Below, piece by piece: positions 19,600 through 31,605 of a DNA stretch of 64,000 nt. The stretch lies in assembly GCA_965199855.1 (NCBI GenBank), contig OZ241326.1:1888001-1952000 (forward strand), given 5' to 3'. A program made the translations under genes and the position numbers. Positions within the stretch are counted from its first letter, which is position 1, and each line of letters opens with the position of its first letter. Below the pieces are notes generated by a model. It was given only the letters and a program-made list of their open reading frames with translations. It made no database searches and was not told the DNA's origin. This DNA is from a bacterium (GTDB lineage: Bacteria; UBA8248).

Positions 19600-19676
19600 T
19601 GGTACCCCCGGCAGGATTCGAACCTGCGGCCTACGGATTAGGAATCCGGCGCTCTATCCTGCTGAGCTACGGGGGC
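19600..19676 (-). tRNA. tRNA-Arg(CCT)
   Basis: reverse complement GCCCCCGTAGCTCAGCAGGATAGAGCG...TTCCTAA...GGTTCGAATCC...ACCA, 77 nt with encoded CCA. Confidence 0.95.
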
Positions 19677-20266: not shown

Positions 20267-21106
20267 TTACGGCAAATAGGATAGCGGGTTTTGGGGCCGC
20301 GTGCGATGCCTGATCTCGAAATGAAGGCGCGCGCTCTTGAAGCGCCGCGTGCGGCCCGCCAGGGCGATGGGCGCCCCGCGCGAGACCCGCTGACCCTTGC
20401 GCACGAGGTTCTTGGCGACGTGGGCGTAGATGGAGTGATACTCGCCTCCCCGGTGGCGCAGGATGATGAGGCGACCGAGATTCCCGGGGCCGAAATCGGA
20501 GAAAATGACGCGGCCCGGCGCGGCGGCGCGCACCTTGTCGCGTTCGCGGGCGGCGATGAGGATGCCGTTCGCCCTTTGGCCGCCTCGCGCCCTGAAGCGG
20601 CGCATCACGCGGCCCCGCAAGGGCCAGGAGAATCGGGGCGCGCCCTTGACCGCCGCCCTCCTCCCCTCCTTCGCGCGCGCGCGGCACTCCCCGCCGGGGC
20701 TTTTCGCTCTCGCTTTCGGTGAGGCGGAGACGCGGCGCGGCGGAGGCGTCTTCCGGCGAGGCGGAGCCGCCCATCGAGGGCGGCGCTTCGGGGGCTGGCG
20801 AGGAACTTTGGCTGCCGGGACGCGGCGCGCGCCTTTCGCGCCCGGGATGAAGAGCCGCTTGCCCGCCTGCAGGCGATCGGGGTTGTCGATGCCGTTCAGG
20901 ACGGCGATTTGCTCGACTTCCACCCCATAGGCGCGTCCGATGAGCCAGAGGCTCTCGCCGCGCCGCACGGTGTGATGAACGCCGCCCGGGTCCCGGATTT
21001 CGGGGGCTTCGCGCCGCTCCCTCGCGTCCCGGCTTCTCTGCGGCGGTTCAACCAGTGCGCAGCCGCTCAGCAAAATCAAGAAAAACAGGCATCCCCTGCG
21101 CCGCAT
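20267..21106 (-). CDS. LysM + M23 lipoprotein (NlpD-like)
   Basis: lipobox LLSGC, LysM HTVRRGESLW.I, degenerate M23 (NGILI instead of HxxxD; YAH; LHFEIR); ATG 21106 after GGAGG. Confidence 0.85.
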   Translation of the reverse strand: MRRRGCLFFLILLSGCALVEPPQRSRDARERREAPEIRDPGGVHHTVRRGESLWLIGRAYGVEVEQIAVLNGIDNPDRLQAGKRLFIPGAKGARRVPAAKVPRQPPKRRPRWAAPPRRKTPPPRRVSASPKARAKSPGGECRARAKEGRRAAVKGAPRFSWPLRGRVMRRFRARGGQRANGILIAARERDKVRAAAPGRVIFSDFGPGNLGRLIILRHRGGEYHSIYAHVAKNLVRKGQRVSRGAPIALAGRTRRFKSARLHFEIRHRTRPQNPLSYLP

Positions 21107-21176
21107 TGCGCGTCGTCCTCCTGCAACTGGAGCGGGCGAAACGTCCAATCAAGCCTCCACACCGCGCGTCATTGCG

Positions 21177-21623
21177 TCAGGAATCCAAAGCGAGCCTCAC
21201 GGCCTCCCGGGGGCTGGAGGCGCGAAGTACCCCCTCCGGGCTGTTCTCGCGCCCGAGGGAGACGACCCGCTTGCCGAGTTTTAACCCCAGTGCGATTTCA
21301 GACAGGGTGCCGTGCGCGCCCGCCAGGGCGATGAGCGCGTGGGCCGTGGCCGCTATGATGGCGTTTCGGGCGTGTCCCATGCCGGTGGCGACGGGAATGT
21401 CGATGAACGGATTGGCGGATTTCGCGTCATAGGAAGGCAGAACGCCCACCGTGAGGCCGCCCGCTTCTTTCGCCCCGCGCGCGGCGGCGCACATGACGCC
21501 GCCCAGCCCCCCGCATACGAGCACGGCGCCCGCCTTGGCGATTTCGGCGCCCGCCGCCTTCGCCAGGGAGTCCGTCTCCGGGGCAGGATCGGAATCGCCG
21601 ACCACGCCGATGATGGTTCGCAT
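21177..21623 (-). CDS. LOG/Rossmann-fold nucleotide-binding protein (TIGR00725-like)
   Basis: LVCGGLGGVM.AAARGA..AGGLTVGVLP, TGMGHARN, GTLSEIA. Confidence 0.85.
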   Translation of the reverse strand: MRTIIGVVGDSDPAPETDSLAKAAGAEIAKAGAVLVCGGLGGVMCAAARGAKEAGGLTVGVLPSYDAKSANPFIDIPVATGMGHARNAIIAATAHALIALAGAHGTLSEIALGLKLGKRVVSLGRENSPEGVLRASSPREAVRLALDS

Positions 21624-21654
21624 CAGATCATCCCGGGGCGGATTCTCCGCATGG

Positions 21655-21682
21655 ATTCTATCGGGCGCGGGCGTTTCGTCAA
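21655..21682 (-). promoter_or_regulatory. putative sigma70 promoter for LOG-nlpD-apt
   Basis: minus strand TTGACG, 16 bp, TAGAAT. Confidence 0.5.
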
Positions 21683-21765
21683 GTCATCCCGAATTTCACG
21701 CGGCCTTGCTCCCGTCGCCGCGCTTTCGTCAAAGCGCGGCTTCCCCCGCGGGCGGCGCTTCGCCG

Positions 21766-22953
21766 TTATTGGCCCTCGGGGATGATCACCCTCTTGTCGT
21801 GGTCCGCCGGCAGACCGTTGTTCAGCGTATGCAGCATCCAGTCCGCGATGGCGGGATACATGTCGGCCGCCACCTCGCCCATAGGGTGAAAAACGCCCTC
21901 GTAGAGCCAGAGTTCGCGCGGGCACGTGAGATGCTCGAAGAAAACCTCAATATCGTCCGGCGTGCAAAGCTCGTCCATGTCGCCGGCTACGAGCAGATAG
22001 TCCGACTTCATCCTGCCCGCCGTGGGCAGCCAGATGTCGTCGCGCTCCTCAACGAAGGCGTCGAACGCATCCTCGTCCAGGATGTTCGTCATATACATGT
22101 AGATTCTCTTGAAGTTGGGCTGGGCCTGGTTGAAGATGATGTCCGAAGGCCCCACGTTCGCCATCTGGCCGACGACGGCGCTGACGCGCTCGTCCTGGGC
22201 GGCGATCTCCACCGTCCAGCGGCTTCCCATGCTCATGCCCATGAGGCCGATCTTGGAGGAATCCACCTCTTCGCGCTCTGTGAGCCAGTCGATGACCCTG
22301 CTGCCCGCGCGCGCGTAGTTGTGGTGATCCACCCACACCTGGTTGACGTTGCATTCGCCCTGCCCGGGGCCGTCCATGATGGCGAAGTTCATGCCTCGCT
22401 CGCGGAACCAGTTGTTGTAGGGCAGGAGCCCGTCCTCCTTGATCATGTCCATGCCGGGAATGAGCAGAACGGTCGGCCTGGCGCCCTCGCCTTCCGCCGG
22501 CCAGTAGTAGAAATACGCGCTCTTGCCCGGCTCGAACTCCACCTCGCGCTTCTGGATGCCGCCGCCCATGAGTTCGCGCATTTTCTCGAAGCAGCGCGCC
22601 ACGCCCGCGTAGTATTCCTTTTTGCGGGGATGGCCGTCCACGGGGATGAGGTGCTGGCCCCGCCCGTAGCAGAGTCCCGCGCGGTTGTAGTGCATGGCGG
22701 CGGTCACGCGGTTGCCGGCCTCTGCCGCGGCGATGGCCTTCTTCTCCTGAAGGGCGGCCTGCTTTCCCCACAGGAGCGGAATGGAGCGCCTGCCCGAAAC
22801 CCTTGAATAGACCGCCTGGAGGTCCTGGTGCCGAAAGCCCCTCTCGTAGCGCGTGCCCATGATGCCGGGGTGGAGGACGTCCTCATTCTCGGAGAGCTTG
22901 AGAAAATTGTCGAAAATCCAGTTCTGGTTCGCGCGCGATGCCTGTCGTCTCAT
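21766..22953 (-). CDS. alpha/beta hydrolase (FrsA / 2,6-dihydroxypseudooxynicotine hydrolase-like)
   Basis: PGMDMIKE, DGPGQGE, GMSMG, GDMD, H motifs. Confidence 0.75.
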   Translation of the reverse strand: MRRQASRANQNWIFDNFLKLSENEDVLHPGIMGTRYERGFRHQDLQAVYSRVSGRRSIPLLWGKQAALQEKKAIAAAEAGNRVTAAMHYNRAGLCYGRGQHLIPVDGHPRKKEYYAGVARCFEKMRELMGGGIQKREVEFEPGKSAYFYYWPAEGEGARPTVLLIPGMDMIKEDGLLPYNNWFRERGMNFAIMDGPGQGECNVNQVWVDHHNYARAGSRVIDWLTEREEVDSSKIGLMGMSMGSRWTVEIAAQDERVSAVVGQMANVGPSDIIFNQAQPNFKRIYMYMTNILDEDAFDAFVEERDDIWLPTAGRMKSDYLLVAGDMDELCTPDDIEVFFEHLTCPRELWLYEGVFHPMGEVAADMYPAIADWMLHTLNNGLPADHDKRVIIPEGQ

Positions 22954-23117
22954 GCCGCCGCCTTCTCCTTTGTCTGCGCGGCGGACGGGCGCGAGTCCCC
23001 TCTTATCGCCGCTCCTGAAGTCAGAAAACACCGGGTCCGGCCGCTATCTTCCAGCCGGGAGCCGTCCGGGTCAACCGCCTCGGGAGATCGCCTTCGGGCG
23101 AGTTTTCGGATGCCGCG

Positions 23118-23146
23118 TTGACGAGGCGGCGCATTTTCCGTAGATT
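23118..23146 (+). promoter_or_regulatory. putative sigma70 promoter of metY copy 1
   Basis: TTGACG (23118-23123), 17 bp, TAGATT (23141-23146). Confidence 0.55.
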
Positions 23147-23247
23147 CAGGCGTTCATTTTCTGAAGGCGGCGACCGCGCCGGCCTTTGAGAATCCCGGGC
23201 GGGGCGCTTCCCGCCGCCATTTTCGATGCAATATGAGGAGCCGGGCA

Positions 23248-24540
23248 ATGACAGTAGAATCAAGCAACAGCGAAACAATCGTCCTTCACGCCGGATACCG
23301 CAAGGACGACGCCACGAACGCCGTGGCCGTGCCGATTTACCAGACGTCCTCCTACCAGTTCGACAGCACGGAGCACGCGGCCAATCTCTTCTCGCTGAAG
23401 GAACTGGGCAACATCTACACCCGCATCATGAACCCCACGAACGACATTCTGGAGAAGCGGCTGGCCGCTCTGGAGGGCGGCGTGGGCGCCCTCGCCGTCT
23501 CCTCGGGGCAATCCGCCTCGATGATGGCCGTGATGAACGTCGCGCGCGCCGGCGACAACATCGTGAGTTCGACGGACCTCTACGGCGGCACGTGGAACCT
23601 GTTCGCCAACCAGCTGGAGGACATCGGCATCGAGTGCCGCTTCGTGGACCCCGCAGACCCGCAAAGCTTCGCCGAAGCGACCGACGACAGGACGCGCGCC
23701 TACTACGCCGAGACGCTGCCAAACCCGAAGCTGCGCGTTTTCCCGATCAGGGAGGTCGCCGACATCGGGCGCGCGATGGGGATTCCCCTCATCATGGACA
23801 ACACGGCGGCGCACGGCCTCTGCAAGCCCTTCGAGCACGGCGCGGCCGTCATCGCCTCCTCGTGCACGAAATACATCGGCGGGCACGGCAACTCCATCGG
23901 CGGCGTCATCATCGACGGCGGAAACTTCGACTGGGCGGCGCACCCCGAGCGGCAGCCCTACCTGAACCAGCCCGACCCGAGCTATCACGGCGCCGTGTGG
24001 ACGGAGGCCGTCAAGCCGCTCGGCCCCATCGCCTACATCATCAAGGCGCGCGTCACGCTCCTGCGCGACTCCGGCCAGGCGACCAGCCCCTTCAACGCCT
24101 TCCTGTTTCTCCAGGGGCTGGAAACCCTGCCCCTGCGCATGGAGCGACACTGCGAAAACGCCGAGAAGGCGGCGGACTTCCTGAAAAACCACCCCAAGGT
24201 GAGCGCCGTGATCTACCCGGGCCTCATGGAGGGCGAATTCCGCCGCCGCGCCGACGCCTACCTCAAGGGCGGCTACGGCGGCCTGTGCGGCTTCGAGCTC
24301 AAGGGCGGGAACGAGGCCGGCCAGAACTTCATCAACGCGCTCAAGATGTTCTACCACGTGGCGAACATCGGCGATTCGAGGAGTCTGGCGATTCACCCGG
24401 CGAGCACCACGCACTCCCAGCTCAGCCCGGAGGAGCAGGAGAAAACGGGCGTGACGCCGGGCTACGTGCGCCTCTCCATCGGCATCGAGCACATCGACGA
24501 CATCATCGCCGACCTCTCCCAGGCGCTGGACGCCGCGTAG
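23248..24540 (+). CDS. metY: O-acetylhomoserine aminocarboxypropyltransferase (copy 1)
   Basis: AVPIYQTSSY, GNIYTRIMNPT, SCTKYIGGHG (PLP Lys), [27 protein letters not shown]. Confidence 0.93.
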   Translation: MTVESSNSETIVLHAGYRKDDATNAVAVPIYQTSSYQFDSTEHAANLFSLKELGNIYTRIMNPTNDILEKRLAALEGGVGALAVSSGQSASMMAVMNVARAGDNIVSSTDLYGGTWNLFANQLEDIGIECRFVDPADPQSFAEATDDRTRAYYAETLPNPKLRVFPIREVADIGRAMGIPLIMDNTAAHGLCKPFEHGAAVIASSCTKYIGGHGNSIGGVIIDGGNFDWAAHPERQPYLNQPDPSYHGAVWTEAVKPLGPIAYIIKARVTLLRDSGQATSPFNAFLFLQGLETLPLRMERHCENAEKAADFLKNHPKVSAVIYPGLMEGEFRRRADAYLKGGYGGLCGFELKGGNEAGQNFINALKMFYHVANIGDSRSLAIHPASTTHSQLSPEEQEKTGVTPGYVRLSIGIEHIDDIIADLSQALDAA

Positions 24541-24555
24541 AACCGACGGAAAGCG

Positions 24556-24592
24556 AAAAGAGGGCGGCCCCGATCGGGCCGCCCTCTTTTTT
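24556..24592. terminator. bidirectional rho-independent terminator between metY and the CRISPR locus
   Basis: AAAAGAGGGCGGCCC-CGATC-GGGCCGCCCTCTTTT(TT): 15-bp perfect inverted repeat with A/T tails on both sides. Confidence 0.9.
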
Positions 24593-24679
24593 GGTCGCTA
24601 CATATTGAAAATGAATGAATAAATGGCCAGCACTTAAAGCATCAAATGAAGTTTTCAGATTGGGTTCCCCTGGGCCGGG

Positions 24680-24911
24680 CGGGTCGTCAATCCCCACCGC
24701 ACAGGGGCCTATATCCCGCGCAAAACATCCACACCCTGAACTAGTTGCGGTCAATCCCCACCGCACAGGGGCCTATATCTCCGCGGACAGCGCGTCTACG
24801 TCACGCATTGTTGCGGTCAATCCCCACCGCACAGGGGCCTATATCGCAATGTCACGTCGACCTCAATGTTTGTGGGTTGCGGTCAATCCCCACCGCACAG
24901 GGGCCTATATC
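24680..24911 (-). CRISPR. CRISPR array, 4 repeats / 3 spacers
   Basis: 36-nt repeat GTTGCGGTCAATCCCCACCGCACAGGGGCCTATATC exact at 24744-24779, 24810-24845, 24876-24911; copy at 24680-24715 is identical over its last 30 nt; unique spacers of 28, 30, 30 nt. Orientation inferred from the degenerate terminal repeat and the effector gene. Confidence 0.95.
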
Positions 24912-25057
24912 CCGTTTCATGCAAAACCTTGTTTTCATGCTTCGTCCGGCGTTTTCTCCCATAGAGGAATTCTCTACGCCATGGCTTCGGCTGATTTTTC
25001 GACCCGTTGCCGGGCGCGCCGCTGCGCTCTCGTGGGCTTCCTCTCCTTCACGACGCC

Positions 25058-26980
25058 TCAGCCCTCCATGGCTTTTGTGGCGAGGTTCATCGCCCCGTTC
25101 TCGTCCCTGTCATGCTCCGTTCCGCACTCCGGGCATGTCCACCTCAACCCGGGGTCCGCCTCGTTCTGGTAATCGCATTTCGGGGTGGAGCACTTTCTGC
25201 TCGTATATGCCGGATTTATGTGGACGACGCGAACTCCCTCCCGTTCCGCGCAATTCTTTACGGCGCCGATAAAGACGCCCGGCGCCGCGTCGAACAGTTG
25301 CCCCCGCGATTTTTTTGTATGCTCTCCGCCCTTTTTCTCCTTGTCCTTGAATTCGCGGAGCAGGTTCCCGTCCTCGATCCCTATGGGCAGGCGTTCCGCT
25401 TTGGCTTTGTCCACGATTTCTTTCGCCTTCAGGCGATAAAAGTAGTCGCGCTGTCCGATGAGCCGCTTCACCCGATAATGGTATTCATGGTATCGGCCTT
25501 CCCATGATCTCGCCCATCTCGCTATCGCGTCGCGCGCGGCGTCCTCGTTTTCCGCCAGCGCGTCGGGTCTCTCGCGAAGGGCGAGAACAAGGCTGTAAAC
25601 CGTTTCAAAACTGACGGTTCGCTTCTCGCGCTCCGCGTTGCGGACGATGGCGCGAATGATTCTACGGAATGAATCTTTTTCGTTCGCACCGGCCCATGCC
25701 TTTGTTTTCCTGAGCAATGGCCCGACTGCGAGACCAAAAGCGACCGCGCTCTTGTCGAGAGCGGACTTCAACTTGTTCACGCGCTTGGTGGCGTCCCGCC
25801 ATTCCTCGCGGACGGTGATGTGTTCGGGTTTGAAAGCGGTTTTGGGATCATCGGATTCGCGCTTTATGGCGACGGTCGCCGTTCGCAGCTCCCCCTCGAT
25901 TTCTTTCCAGCCGATGTCGATTCCCATCCCCGCGCGAGAAGAGGGAGCGATGCCGGCGGGCGCGTCGGCTTCAACGAAAAAGCAGACGTGGTATTTGAAC
26001 TTGCCCTTCCCGATGCGGCGGCGAACGAGTTGCGCGTTCTTGATGAGCGCGCCTTCCGGGATGAGGCGGTGCAGAACCAGATCGAAATGGCAATATACGT
26101 CCGAACTCCCCGTTCCCTTTTTCGTGGCGAGCTTGAGGCGGGCGCGGCGAATCCGAGCCTCTTCCCCGTTTGGCTTCTTCCGCCGCCGCTTTTCCCATCG
26201 CCGCTCCAGCTTTTCCAGTTTCTGCTCCGTTTCTTCCTTCGGCAGTTTCTTGTTCCGAATCTTGCGGCGATCCTGCTCGAAAGCCTCCCGCTCATCAAGA
26301 ATGACGAAAGGGCGCTTGTCTTTGTCTTTCCTTTTGCGGAGATCTTCAAAGAAAACGCCGTCTGCGGTTTGTTTTTCCCAAGTGCGGCTGAGGCGGTAAT
26401 GGAAATAACCTGATTTTCTTTTGTGGAATGCGTGAAATCTCAAATTGTAATCACCGGCGATTTCCCCCGCGCTTTTCTTCGTCAACGCTTTGAAGAATTC
26501 GCCTCGTGACGTCCTGAATTTTTCAAGAATATCTCCGGCTGTCTTGCTCATAAGTTCGCACTGATCTACTTGGGCCGCCTCCCGCAAGCGACGTTCAGCC
26601 TCCTTTTTGCACTCCTTCTCCCTGGCGGCGAACTCGGGATTCTCCTTGATGAGCGCGTTCGCCTCCTTGCGCGGCTTCTTGATGTCCTCCCACAGTTTTT
26701 TCCTCTCGTCGATGAGAGCTTCCGGCGGCTCATCGCCTTCGCGCTTCGCCTCGCCAAGCGAGCGTTCGATGATTTCCAGTCTCTCGTCGAGTTTCCGATA
26801 GGCGGGGCTGGCCTCCCGCCGCAGGGAATTATAGGCCGCAACGTCTTTTTCGTGGATTTCGACCAGATTGTTCCGCAACCGGTTGGCTCGCTGGAGCTCG
26901 TTTTCCCCCTCGGCGGGAAACGGCTCCACGGGAACCGCGCCGTATTTCATAACGAACTTTCTGGGTTCTCGCGTTTCCAT
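25058..26980 (-). CDS. compact type V CRISPR effector, Cas12m (V-U1)-like, TnpB-derived RuvC protein
   Basis: RuvC-I GIDIGWK, RuvC-II IGIED, AYTSRKC...C...CPECG zinc ribbon, Ruv[15 protein letters not shown]; stop 146 bp from the array. Start is ATG 26980 or ATG 27004 (the latter overlaps the tRNA CCA). Confidence 0.88.
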
Positions 26981-27003
26981 TTCCTTCTCTTCAAAATAAA
27001 CCA

Positions 27004-27080
27004 TGGTCGGGGCGAGAGGATTTGAACCTCCGGCCTCCTGCTCCCGAAGCAGGCGCGCTACCAGGCTGCGCTACGCCCCG
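27004..27080 (-). tRNA. tRNA-Pro(CGG)
   Basis: reverse complement CGGGGCGTAGCGCAGCCTGGTAGCGCG...TTCGGGA...GGTTCAAATCC...GACCA, 77 nt. Confidence 0.95.
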
Positions 27081-27113
27081 ACCCGACGCGGGCGACGGAA
27101 TGGCGGCGCTCCC

Positions 27114-27784
27114 CTACGCCTTCTCCCATCCGTATTTGCCCACGAGCTTCACGAAAACGCAGTTCACCAACTCCTCCGGCGCGAGCAACTCACCCGCCTT
27201 CGACGCGCGGCATCGCGCGAGCGTCTGCTTCTCGCCCTCCCCCAGGGGCATGACGATGCGCCCGCCCGGGGCGAGCTGCCCGGCCCACGGCTTCGGAACG
27301 CGGGGCGCAGACGCCGCGCTCACGATGACGTCGAAGGGCGCCTCCGCCGGCCAGCCGTACGTGCCGTCCGCCGTCCAGAGCATATAATTCGTCAGGCCGA
27401 GAGAATCCAGGCGCGTCCTGGCTCTCTCCGAGAGTTCGGGCACCCTCTCGATTGCGCGAACGGCGCCCGAGAGCCTCGCCAGAAGCGCGGTAAGGTAGCC
27501 CGAACCCGCGCCGATTTCAAGCACTTTCTCCCCGCCCCCCAGTTCGAGCGCCTCCAGGGTGGCGGCCACCATGTAGGGCTGGGAGATCGTTTGCCCGTGC
27601 CCGATGGGCAGCGCCTTGTCGGCGTAGGCGGCCTCCTGGAAGATGTCGGGCGCGAAGTGGTGCCGGGGCACCTCGCGCAGCGCGTCGATCACGCGGGCGT
27701 CCCGAATCCCCCTGGCGACGATCTGCTTCTCCACCATCTGCTCGCGCGCGCTGCGCCAGCGGCTTCGGGCGTCCTCTTTTCCGT

Positions 27785-27800
<16 letters not shown>
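27114..27800 (-). CDS. pcm: protein-L-isoaspartate O-methyltransferase
   Basis: [38 protein letters not shown]; start uncertain (TTG 27800 or ATG 27737). Confidence 0.93.
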
Positions 27801-30120
<2,320 letters not shown>

Positions 30121-30121
<1 letters not shown>

Positions 30122-30600
30122 TGGCTTTTTCCGAATATCAGGATCCCCGCGCGATTCGGCATATTCTGCGAAACCACCGCCGCGTGGCGATGGTGGGCCT
30201 CTCGGCGAATGAAGCGAGGCCGAGCTACTTCGTGGGCTATTACCTCCAAAGAATGGGGTTTCAGGTCATTCCCGTGAACCCTCGATATGAACGGATATTG
30301 GGGGAAAAATCCTATCCCGACTTGGAGTCGATGCCCGTTCCGCCCGACGTGGTGGACGTATTCCGCAGACCGGATGAAATTTCGGAGGCGGTGGATGAGG
30401 CGATAGCCGTCGGCGCCAAATCCATCTGGATGCAGTTCGGCGTGGTGAACGAGGCGGAAGCCGCCCGCGCCAGGTCCGGGGGCCTCCTCGTCGTCATGGA
30501 CAGGTGCATGAAGATCGAGCACGGGAGACTGAGGGGCGGCTTGCGCTCGGCGGGGATGCGCACCGGCGTCATCACGACGCGCCGAAGCGCGCCCCTTTAG
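30121..30600 (+). CDS. CoA-binding protein (YccU-like)
   Basis: AMVGLS....RPS, IPVNP, DVVDVFR, WMQFG, VMDRCMKIE; TGATG overlap with metY copy 2. Confidence 0.9.
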
Positions 30601-30710
30601 GTGGGATTCGCGGCGCGACGGCTTTCGAGCCGCTTGCAAATTCCCGGAATATCCTTTAAGCAGGAAAGCGCAGGAGGTTTCGGCAGTTCGCCGCTTCCGC
30701 AAGAGAGAGC

Positions 30711-31409
30711 ATGAATAAACTCAAAATCCTGATGCTGGGCATTCCTCTCCTTCCCGTATGGATGGCTTCGTCCGCTCAAGCGGAAAACGGGCTCATCGTC
30801 CACACGCGAGCGATTTCCGGCCAGCCCCGCGTCTTTCTCGCGCGCGGAGAGAAAATCTCTCTCAAGGGCGAGCAGGCGATGCGGCCGGGCGATCGCATCG
30901 TCACGAGCGGGACGGCGCGGGCGCTGCTTCGCTTCTCGCACAGTCCCGGCTGTCGGCTCGTGCTGGAACTGGAGCCGAACAGTTCGTTCAAGCTGACGGA
31001 CTCCAAGCCGGGCGGCGCGTATTCCGCCCGGCTCGACAGGGGCGGCGTGAAATGCCGGGGCTCTTCCTGCGGTCTGAGTCTGAGCGTCGCGACGCCGACG
31101 GGAATCCTGAGCGGCAGGGACGCCAAATTCGCCCTGCGCGCCCGGCGCCATTCGACCACCGTGATATTTGCGAGCGGGCGAATGCGCCTGCTCGTCGGCG
31201 GTCAGGCGTTTTCGCTGCGCGAGATGACGCGCATCACCGTCTCGAAAACGGGGGGGCATCGAATCGCCACGATGCGCGGCGGCGATTTCCGAATACGTCC
31301 TCTCCCCCGCGCCGCCTCTCCTTCCCCCGCTTCGCTCTCGCCTGTTTCCGCCAGTCGCCGCTTTCTCCGCCCCGCCGCTTCCCCGGCCGCGTCGACGCGA
31401 AGGCCTTGA
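30711..31409 (+). CDS. secreted FecR-domain protein
   Basis: signal peptide; GDRIVT...RALLRF....LELEPNS, VATPTG pattern. Confidence 0.55.
   Translation: MNKLKILMLGIPLLPVWMASSAQAENGLIVHTRAISGQPRVFLARGEKISLKGEQAMRPGDRIVTSGTARALLRFSHSPGCRLVLELEPNSSFKLTDSKPGGAYSARLDRGGVKCRGSSCGLSLSVATPTGILSGRDAKFALRARRHSTTVIFASGRMRLLVGGQAFSLREMTRITVSKTGGHRIATMRGGDFRIRPLPRAASPSPASLSPVSASRRFLRPAASPAASTRRP

Positions 31410-31528: not shown

Positions 31529-31605
<77 letters not shown>

Follow-up and report, generated by a model that had tools for sequence, protein, structure and literature searches.

A probable minimal type V-M Cas12m locus of the D-E-D-keeping branch in a tRNA-side cassette

Four clades of Cas12m have been distinguished, among which clade 3 carries the RuvC triads DED or NED and clade 4 DED, DND or NED, as cited in Omura 2023. 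Bigelyte 2024 describes Cas12m proteins with D-E-D, H-D-D and N-D-D triads as binding DNA in a PAM-dependent manner without cleaving it; for four D-E-D variants PAM-dependent binding is given and dsDNA cleavage was absent, and for MsCas12m neither target nor collateral cleavage is reported in that work. The same source presents pre-crRNA processing by Cas12m as independent of RuvC and free of tracrRNA. A crRNA combining a pseudoknot with a guide of ~17 nt has been published for Cas12m, including in Omura 2023. The latter also states, as 'data not shown', that conversion of the HDD triad of Cas12m2 to DED did not restore cleavage, which implies that the triad alone would not be sufficient for cutting. 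Our literature search found no paper describing UnCas12m4a, a Cas12m of known structure, and no published activity data for any member of the UnCas12m4a-like clade.

Here we analysed a window of 64,000 nt from the chromosome of an uncultured bacterium. It probably holds a complete minimal type V-M Cas12m locus that belongs to the D-E-D branch together with UnCas12m4a, is arranged as a cassette beside a tRNA gene and acts through binding-only interference. The locus adds a member to the D-E-D-keeping branch of the described Cas12m family and is not a new type of editor.

The cassette, its gene and its array

In a host with 67% GC, the cassette occupies ~2.3-2.4 kb, bordered by a Cys/Met-metabolism gene on one side and by tRNA-Pro(CGG) on the other. 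The following features were located, from right to left:

27004..27080, minus strand: tRNA-Pro, anticodon CGG (ARAGORN; Rfam tRNA 67.4 bits at 27007-27080)
25058..26980, minus strand: cas12m, read from its likely start codon M9 through the TGA stop; 640 aa (ORF, homologue starts, family profiles)
26183..26284, minus strand: lineage-specific charged insertion, approximate (protein alignments)
24974..25057, minus strand: 27 in-frame codons and a TAG past the TGA stop (sequence read, relatives)
24912..24973, minus strand: leader separating the TAG from repeat 1 (pairwise alignment with L001)
24680..24911, minus strand: CRISPR array of four 36-nt repeats (repeat finding)
24876-24911, 24846-24875, 24810-24845 and 24780-24809, minus strand: R1, S1, R2 and S2 of the array, in this order
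24744-24779, 24716-24743 and 24680-24715, minus strand: R3, S3 and the degenerate terminal repeat
24556..24592, plus strand: GC-rich hairpin followed by a T-run, 3' of the PLP-enzyme gene at 23233-24540 (sequence read)

The tRNA-Pro(CGG) gene immediately precedes cas12m on the same strand, as it does in the syntenic locus of a relative (L001), and evidently delimits the inserted cassette on the right. On the left, homology to 'empty' sites stops at ~24592-24599, where the BLAST flanks end; the hairpin at 24556..24592 thus appears as host sequence flanking the cassette, next to the PLP-enzyme gene, which belongs to the Pfam family Cys/Met metabolism. No duplication of a tRNA-derived attachment site was seen at the left edge. 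The cassette was missing from this site in all five same-genus genomes examined, and of 22 other species in the genus, two had a homologue.

The sequence-only reading had described an ORF of 640-648 aa whose end lies 146 nt from a 4-repeat array. Both ORF (25058..27004, minus strand, 648 aa), with its stop codon at that distance, and repeats were found again, with the RuvC motifs GIDIGWK from 361 (D363), IGIED from 541 (E544) and HDRDENG from 631 (D634), the zinc ribbon ligands C605/C610/C624/C627 (all in 648-aa numbering), and the remaining quoted motifs at 37, 188, 311, 517 and 573. While coordinates and motifs stood, the start needs revision. The first ATG, at 27004, abuts the tRNA gene; L001 carries a stop codon upstream of METREPRKF, and homologues begin at this same motif. 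Since the syntenic gene starts there, M9, with its ATG at 26980, is the likely start, giving 640 aa. From the tRNA end to M9 the distance is only 23 nt, and a consensus scan, which is weak evidence only, found no sigma-70-like site ahead of it; this short gap and the lack of such a site lead us to infer co-transcription of cas12m with tRNA-Pro.

The array repeats start at 24680, 24744, 24810 and 24876. The first of these copies shows 86% identity, and the other three do not differ from one another. Their spacing of 64, 66 and 66 nt leaves spacers of 28, 30 and 30 nt, and no further copy of the repeat exists elsewhere in the 3.04-Mb genome. The degenerate distal repeat and the same layout in 10 related loci point to a minus-strand orientation of the array. 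Directly downstream of the gene and in the same orientation, an array was present in 10 of the 11 related loci examined, the eleventh having 138 nt of contig left. The repeat is predicted to form a pseudoknot of the Cas12m type, 96.7% paired over nine loci; this fold is backed by covariation, with compensatory changes in five of the six pairs of helix 2 and a covariation score that none of 500 shuffles reached. Concordant with the earlier remark that Cas12m lacks tracrRNA, no tracrRNA-like anti-repeat was found within 21000-31000. The leader is partly conserved relative to L001, the conserved blocks adjoining repeat 1. Consensus scans, again weak evidence only, revealed no sigma-70-like promoter there either. 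Rfam (24550-25100, E<=1) gave neither CRISPR-DR nor another meaningful match, and its gathering thresholds were passed by three tRNAs only.

Spacers of the window and L001 are wholly different, which suggests that the arrays have turned over. No self-target of the window spacers was detected in the genome, and the best non-self matches comprised 14 nt exact or 17/18 nt, none over the PAM-proximal part. Prefixes of 22-24 nt, taken from the three spacers of the window and from two of L001, had no exact match in viral contigs. A degenerate pattern derived from two related spacers of the genome G008 was likewise missing from viral contigs, and in 23 genomes of the genus it recovered only the G008 array itself. 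BLAST searches of phages and plasmids with the spacers yielded nothing meaningful; thus, no protospacer was found for any spacer.

The earlier claim that the window carries no cas1, cas2, cas4 or tnpA agreed with genome-wide searches. Cas1 and Cas2 family matches were confined to C1:978061-979184, ~0.93 Mb from the window, in a separate type II-C Cas9-Cas1-Cas2 locus; Cas4 had no match in the genome, and the one Y1-transposase match, at 2.896 Mb and ~0.98 Mb away, was weak. The V-M and II-C arrays share a geometry of 36-nt repeats and 30-nt spacers. By eye, their repeat ends are somewhat alike in the window genome, and this similarity was not seen in G008 or G042. Adaptation in trans by the resident II-C Cas1-Cas2 is no more than a weak idea: the two leaders are unlike, the similarity of the ends is missing in G008 and G042, and G001 combines a V-M locus with no Cas1 match at 99% completeness.

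Family assignment and the RuvC triad

Profile and structure searches matched the full length of the protein and bore out its initial description as a Cas12m-like (V-M, formerly V-U1) effector. The PADLOC Cas12u1 profile matched with an E value of 2.9e-43 (residues 18-647 aligned to 5-532 of the 533 profile positions), and the best solved structure was UnCas12m4a (4.3e-55, stretches 17-232 and 286-647). A profile of the clade matched four solved structures of Cas12m type over the full length (23vu 7.6e-224, 23vw 9.2e-68, 8pm4 4.6e-41, 8hhl/8hio ~1e-35); its N-terminal ~430 positions were matched by Cas12m structures alone, while TnpB, Cas12f and TranC matched only positions 436-584. The window protein falls into a 24-member clade that holds P0001 and P0020 (FastTree support 1.0). 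P0020 in turn matches UnCas12m4a (23vu) at 1.3e-157, so that, judged via P0020, the window protein is monophyletic with proteins close to 23vu. We infer from the PDB name alone that this UnCas12m4a-like clade corresponds to 'clade 4' of Wu 2022.

Further features of type V-M are present: the homology to Cas12m includes the N-terminal WED/REC half, the single compact effector (~520-650 aa) carries a C-terminal RuvC interrupted by a zinc ribbon, and the array with its pseudoknot repeat adjoins the gene in a locus with neither an anti-repeat nor an adaptation module. The protein differs from Cas12m clade 2 (Cas12m2-like), which has an H-D-D triad, in carrying D-E-D. It does not qualify as Cas12f (type V-F) either: NCBIfam Cas12f2 scored 49.8 against a cut-off of 450, and no anti-repeat accompanies the array. 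The PADLOC model PDLC01692, labelled Cas12f, matched over the full length (3.2e-40); we take it to be a V-U1-type model carrying a V-F label.

The canonical triad had been thought to set this protein apart. This did not hold, since clades with DED are published and 87 of 129 full-length relatives carry D-E-D; an intact triad is not unusual in Cas12m as the literature describes it. Within the UnCas12m4a-like clade, D-E-D was found in 21 of 22 representatives, and the G008 and L001 proteins have it as well, whereas other Cas12m branches have drifted to NDD, HDD, DKD, NGD and others. Such retention hints that the site may be used for something.

A protein of the same family whose D-E-D RuvC is used catalytically, nicking or cleaving target DNA or ssDNA as a tracrRNA-free compact nuclease, would account for this retention in 21 of 22 clade representatives, G008 and L001 and for the presence of all three acidic residues and four zinc ligands; the same suggestion has been made for a DED Cas12m in a myxophage preprint (10.64898/2026.09.14.751636). 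We nevertheless regard it as unlikely, because all four D-E-D Cas12m of Bigelyte 2024 are reported there without dsDNA cleavage, MsCas12m without target or collateral cleavage, and Cas12m2 as described in Omura 2023 did not regain cleavage upon conversion to DED. Omura 2023 further offers another role for the acidic residues, which could serve metal-mediated binding of the non-target strand instead. Distinctly unlikely is the wider proposition that the RuvC of the whole UnCas12m4a-like branch works natively as a nuclease or nickase in tracrRNA-free effectors of ~600-670 aa, modulated by the charged insertion and the basic tail.

We therefore return to binding-only interference, by analogy with the characterised Cas12m proteins, as the preferred reading. 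Gene and array would be expressed from the minus strand, probably in one transcript with the tRNA, and Cas12m would trim the pre-crRNA inside the repeat. The mature crRNA would consist of a repeat-derived pseudoknot handle of ~30 nt and the first 17-20 nt of the spacer. The complex would find PAM-flanked dsDNA, form an R-loop and remain bound, and may thereby, without cutting them, keep invading elements from being transcribed or replicated. The locus by itself would be unable to make new spacers. In the window strain, a nonsense codon costs the protein a basic C-terminal tail of 27 aa and leaves the catalytic and zinc-binding residues intact.

State of the window allele and the TnpB reading

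The ORF end given previously is indeed a stop codon here, TGA, but most near-identical relatives read 27 codons further, to the TAG at 24974-24976. This tail is basic (9 K/R of 27); in the 90% cluster of near-identical relatives, 8 of the 10 members that are near full length carry it. At the TGA site of the window, the X4 and X10 contigs have CGA and X8 has GAA; TGA is shared with the identical X2 contig only. Hence, the TGA in the window strain evidently cuts off a tail that most near-identical relatives would make. An alternative genetic code for the two in-frame TGAs, of the window and of L001, was rejected, since other strains have CGA or GAA at the site of the window and the window codes R where L001 has TGA. 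The charged insertion comprises residues ~241-273 relative to P0020 and ~236-283 relative to P0005-7, residues 234-290 being 61% charged; other members of the clade, the G008 protein among them, lack it.

With three spacers, a truncated tail and broken related alleles in L001 and P0166, the copy of the window strain may be impaired. In our view it is very unlikely to be a remnant in decay with little or no function. Such decay would fit an array of only three spacers and a degenerate repeat, the tail-removing TGA restricted to the window and X2, an in-frame TGA ahead of RuvC-II in the syntenic L001 gene, a frameshift ahead of the zinc ribbon in P0166, and the occurrence of a homologue in just two of the 22 other species. 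However, dN/dS between window and L001 was 0.28 overall, indicating purifying selection on cas12m, 0.23 downstream of the L001 stop and 0.32 in the tail (27 codons only). Moreover, eight of ten cluster members have their full length and retain DED and CCCC, all that the truncation takes away is a poorly conserved tail beyond RuvC-III, and the wholly different spacers of window and L001 speak for turnover.

Hardly credible, and already contradicted, is a transposon-borne TnpB (IS200/IS605, IS607) or TnpB-to-Cas12 intermediate guided by omega-RNA rather than crRNA, the latter having been floated in the sequence-only reading: the C-terminal RuvC/TNB part does fit NCBIfam guided_TnpB (89.2 bits) and Pfam Cas12f1-like_TNB (3.6e-17), and the source of one relative names it 'transposase', but the guided_TnpB match falls short of its curated cut-off of 100 and extends over residues 519-643 only, the N-terminal half of this 640-aa protein is found only in Cas12m, the gene is single-copy as the sole PF07282 match in the genome, no Y1 transposase or other transposon context is nearby, and the downstream array is conserved among relatives. 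Viral contigs scanned for relatives gave, in the best 80 loci, only C-terminal TnpB-like matches.

Relation to known systems

As a discovery the locus is small: there is already ample description of type V-M, members with D-E-D are on record and have been assayed, and the PDB contains a structure from the same clade. New details are the cassette beside tRNA-Pro(CGG), the M9 start, the tail-removing TGA and the separate II-C locus. It offers a natural example of a minimal Cas12m cassette, right behind a tRNA gene, with no promoter found, no adaptation genes and a patchy distribution in the genus, and natural full-length and tail-truncated alleles exist for comparison. It also strengthens the case for asking whether the D-E-D-conserving clade differs functionally from the binders characterised so far.

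TnpB (ISDra2, PDB 8bf8/8h1j) and Cas12f have the RuvC-II/III region and the zinc-ribbon (TNB) core in common with the window protein, the match being limited to the last ~140 profile positions of its clade. In contrast to TnpB, the window protein is ~240 aa longer, linked to a CRISPR array and outside any transposon context; from Cas12f the locus differs in that no anti-repeat (tracrRNA) was found.

Cas12m2 of Mycolicibacterium mucogenicum (8hhl, 8hhm, 8hio) and the 'DNA-binding protein Cas12m' 23vw are homologous over the full length at profile level (~1e-35 and 9.2e-68, respectively) and represent branches distant from the window protein, which reaches 23vw in a direct phmmer search with only 1.2e-10. 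As described in Omura 2023, the crRNA handle of Cas12m2 has the pseudoknot architecture seen in the window repeat, with a repeat ending in ..AC before the guide, and its H-D-D triad binds one Mg2+ and the non-target strand, whereas the window protein has D-E-D. The D-E-D Cas12m of Bigelyte 2024, e.g. MsCas12m, resemble the window locus in type V-M, canonical triad, a single short crRNA and the lack of tracrRNA and adaptation genes, a comparison made by description only; they are reported to bind and not to cut. Similarly compared by description, MvCas12m of the myxophage preprint has 610 aa, D-E-D, an adjoining array, no cas1/2/4 and likewise no protospacers, but is phage-encoded, while the window locus is chromosomal.

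UnCas12m4a (PDB 23vu, 23vv; 614 aa) is the nearest solved relative. Judged through P0020, it belongs to the same well-supported clade, in which a long branch leads to the window protein (~29% identity to P0020). Its alignment keeps D, E and D (gidlG, igvEn, hDrDtn), and the window protein differs from it by an extra charged insertion of ~33-45 aa after residue 236-241 and, in full-length alleles, by the basic tail of 27 aa.

Family membership and the RuvC triad

The locus comprises the following features:

23233-24540: gene of a Cys/Met-metabolism PLP enzyme (left flank)
24680, 24744, 24810 and 24876 (starts), minus strand, the transcribed one: four 36-nt direct repeats, the array beginning 146 nt past the cas12m stop
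25058..27004, minus strand: cas12m ORF (648 aa)
27004-27080, minus strand, as cas12m: tRNA-Pro(CGG)
beyond the tRNA: PCMT and SurE (right flank)

What the sequence-only reading had observed at this locus was confirmed, with refinements to the start and tail of the gene: the RuvC triad (D363, E544, D634) and the zinc-ribbon cysteines (605/610/624/627; 648-aa numbering) are at the residues it had named, and the four-repeat array lies at the distance from the ORF that it had given. A Pfam search recognised only a C-terminal Cas12f1-like TNB domain. Judged from its sequence, the protein is almost certainly a Cas12m, as proposed, because the PADLOC Cas12u1 profile (V-U1 is the old name of V-M) matched it end to end (2.9e-43), its best PDB matches were UnCas12m4a (23vu/23vv, 4.3e-55) and then 23vw (‘DNA-binding protein Cas12m’), it is placed in a clade with support 1.0, and the profile of this clade matched four Cas12m-type structures along the whole length of the profile. 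At E<=1e-30, a full HMMER scan across 1.84 billion representative sequences returned 696 proteins. The tree and the triad survey comprised 129 of 156 proteins, those of at least 540 aa, leaving out shorter ones and fragment P0003. Together with P0002, a 97% relative, the window protein forms a long branch within a clade of 22 representatives, which grows to 24 members, with support 1.0, when the proteins of G008 and L001, from two other genomes of the genus, are added. UnCas12m4a is the nearest solved structure, and clade member P0020 matches it at 1.3e-157; an H-D-D protein of another branch had 23vw and Cas12m2 as best PDB matches.

The intact triad had been taken to set the protein apart, possibly as a nuclease-competent relative and candidate compact editor. 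However, D-E-D occurs in 87 of the 129 full-length relatives and in 21 of the 22 clade representatives (DDD in the other), and the accessible text of Omura et al. (2023, PMC10442227) already reports a division of the family into four clades by triad, with DED/NED in clade 3 and DED/DND/NED in clade 4. Neither the distinctiveness of the triad nor the novelty of the editor is upheld. The premise that Cas12m binds without cutting because its triad is non-canonical is incomplete: among tested members the lack of cleavage extends to D-E-D proteins. Cas12m2 did not regain cleavage when its HDD was changed to DED, according to the accessible text of Omura et al. (2023, PMC10442227). In the accessible part of Bigelyte et al. 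(2024, PMC11013384), four of the eight variants picked were D-E-D, none of the eight cleaved dsDNA while binding was PAM-dependent, purified MsCas12m (D-E-D) showed neither target nor collateral cleavage, and RuvC mutation left pre-crRNA processing unaffected. A 2025 classification paper likewise describes V-M as interference without cleavage. The main alternative, that the D-E-D strictly conserved in the window's clade is catalytic, draws on this conservation and is unlikely in the light of these D-E-D proteins. No report of an active Cas12m was found among the 2025-2026 papers listed, and no publication on ‘Cas12m4’, ‘Cas12m3’ or ‘UnCas12m4a’.

Insertion, start codon and alleles of cas12m

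The cassette, ~2.3-2.4 kb long, was evidently inserted just 3’ of the tRNA, because the same flanks are 154-677 nt apart in five same-genus genomes compared with 2403 nt in the window. The GC content of the locus is 50-60% versus 65-70% in the flanks, and its left edge falls somewhere from about 24600 to 24680, where no tRNA-fragment duplication was seen. A homologue occurs in just 2 of the 22 other species of the genus. In the sister species' genome G001 (locus L001) the cassette occupies the corresponding position and shares the window's repeat, but all its spacers differ; G008 has a 42%-identical cas12m with 13 repeats at another site (L032:3933-6768, G008:C10).

Within the genus, the intergenic segment separating the PLP-enzyme gene from tRNA-Pro(CGG) is hypervariable, with AT-rich, mostly unrelated sequences of 154-677 nt (L027-L031, window 24600-24680). 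By eye, a short AAGCATCAAATGAAG-like motif (window 24637-24651) recurs in L030 and, in weaker form, in L028 and L001. Paralogous genes for Cys/Met-metabolism PLP enzymes (23233-24540 and about 28,900-30,121; BLAST DNA identity 63-76%) flank the region, and further tRNA genes lie nearby (Arg(CCT), 19600-19676; Pro(GGG), 31529-31605), the same three tRNAs being present in L001.

The first ATG of the ORF touches the tRNA. Translation most likely starts at M9 (26980), yielding a 640-aa protein, since in the syntenic L001 a stop codon precedes the M9 equivalent, where the homologues begin. Because M9 is 23 nt from the tRNA end and no sigma-70-like site was detected, we infer co-transcription with the tRNA.

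Past the TGA stop, 27 in-frame codons are followed by TAG (24974-24976). Eight of the 10 near-full-length members of the protein's 90%-identity cluster (none bears a name from its source) have a basic tail of 27 aa, for a length of 676 or 669 aa; the allele in the window ends at the TGA. DED and CCCC are present in nine, and P0166 has a frameshift ahead of the zinc ribbon. In contigs of independent sequencing runs the TGA position reads CGA (X4, X10) or GAA (X8), X2 is identical to the window, and L001 has a different in-frame TGA (L001:7561-7563) just upstream of RuvC-II. Compared with L001, the window gene has a dN/dS of 0.28 overall, 0.23 3’ of the L001 stop and 0.32 over the 27 tail codons, which argues that the damage is recent in a gene that has evidently been under purifying selection; that the locus in the window's strain is a remnant is quite improbable. 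Repeated damage in single genomes (L001, P0166) accompanies overall purifying selection. Seventeen sequencing-run entries, drawn from 8 studies, contain the stretch; several are labelled sponge metagenome, and the sponge-metagenome contigs X8 and X10 span cas12m.

Relation to TnpB, CRISPR array and predicted action

The suggested TnpB-to-Cas12 intermediate found no support, and a TnpB proper is highly improbable: the NCBIfam TnpB model scored 89.2 (cut-off 100), on residues 519-643 only; TnpB ranked after 23vw in the PDB search, matching only the last 80 residues; the clade profile matched TnpB, TranC and Cas12f only at profile positions 436-584; the N-terminal half separating Cas12m from TnpB is present; cas12m is the genome's only PF07282-bearing gene; and a genome search found no Y1 transposase near it.

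The repeats starting at 24876, 24810 and 24744 are identical, the distal copy (24680) is 86% identical, and the spacers measure 30, 30 and 28 nt. The repeat has no other occurrence in the 3.04-Mb, 67%-GC, single-contig genome, and no anti-repeat was found within 21000-31000. Ten of the 11 related loci that were inspected (L001-L003, L009, L010, L012-L015, L032) have an array immediately behind cas12m, oriented like the gene and with a period of 66 nt, the eleventh (L011) having just 138 nt of contig remaining; the partial-match loci L004 and L016-L022 were left out of this count. The L032 array contains two adjacent spacers that are same-register variants of one sequence, and one exactly duplicated repeat-spacer unit; L012 has a duplicated spacer too.

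Read on the minus strand, the repeat can fold into two helices that interleave (repeat positions 9-12/21-24 and 15-20/29-34). Across nine loci with different repeats, pairing was found in 96.7% of cells and in at most 54% with partners slid out of register, five of the six helix 2 pairs showed compensatory changes, the covariation score was reached by none of 500 shuffles, and RNAalifold recovered helix 2 unaided. The G008 repeat, read off the sequence and outside these counts, is a sixth helix-2 variant (CTGGAG/CTCCAG).

The reported lack of adaptation genes in the window also held: Cas1 and Cas2 occur in this genome only at a complete type II-C locus 0.93 Mb away (G000:C1:~975,000-981,400; L005, L007), with Cas9 (992 aa) and 23 repeats of 36 nt separated by 29-30-nt spacers. 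A type V-C locus in G008 (L040, G008:C6:1-9845) encodes Cas12c (1272 aa, PADLOC E = 0) and Cas1, with an array whose period is 43 nt (repeats of about 26 nt, spacers of 17 nt); together with Cas12m, this gives the genus two kinds of type V effector, described members of both silencing without cutting.

Altogether, the window locus adds another member to an already-described family and is of modest interest. Action by binding only is rather probable, and membership and binding-only action jointly are likely, given how all Cas12m proteins tested in the literature behaved. The Cas12m-crRNA complex would bind PAM-flanked dsDNA and silence it by blocking transcription or replication. Its crRNA would carry a ~17-20-nt guide and a ~30-nt pseudoknot handle, and the predicted fold of the repeat agrees with the pseudoknot crRNA handles described for Cas12m2 and PmCas12m in the accessible published text.
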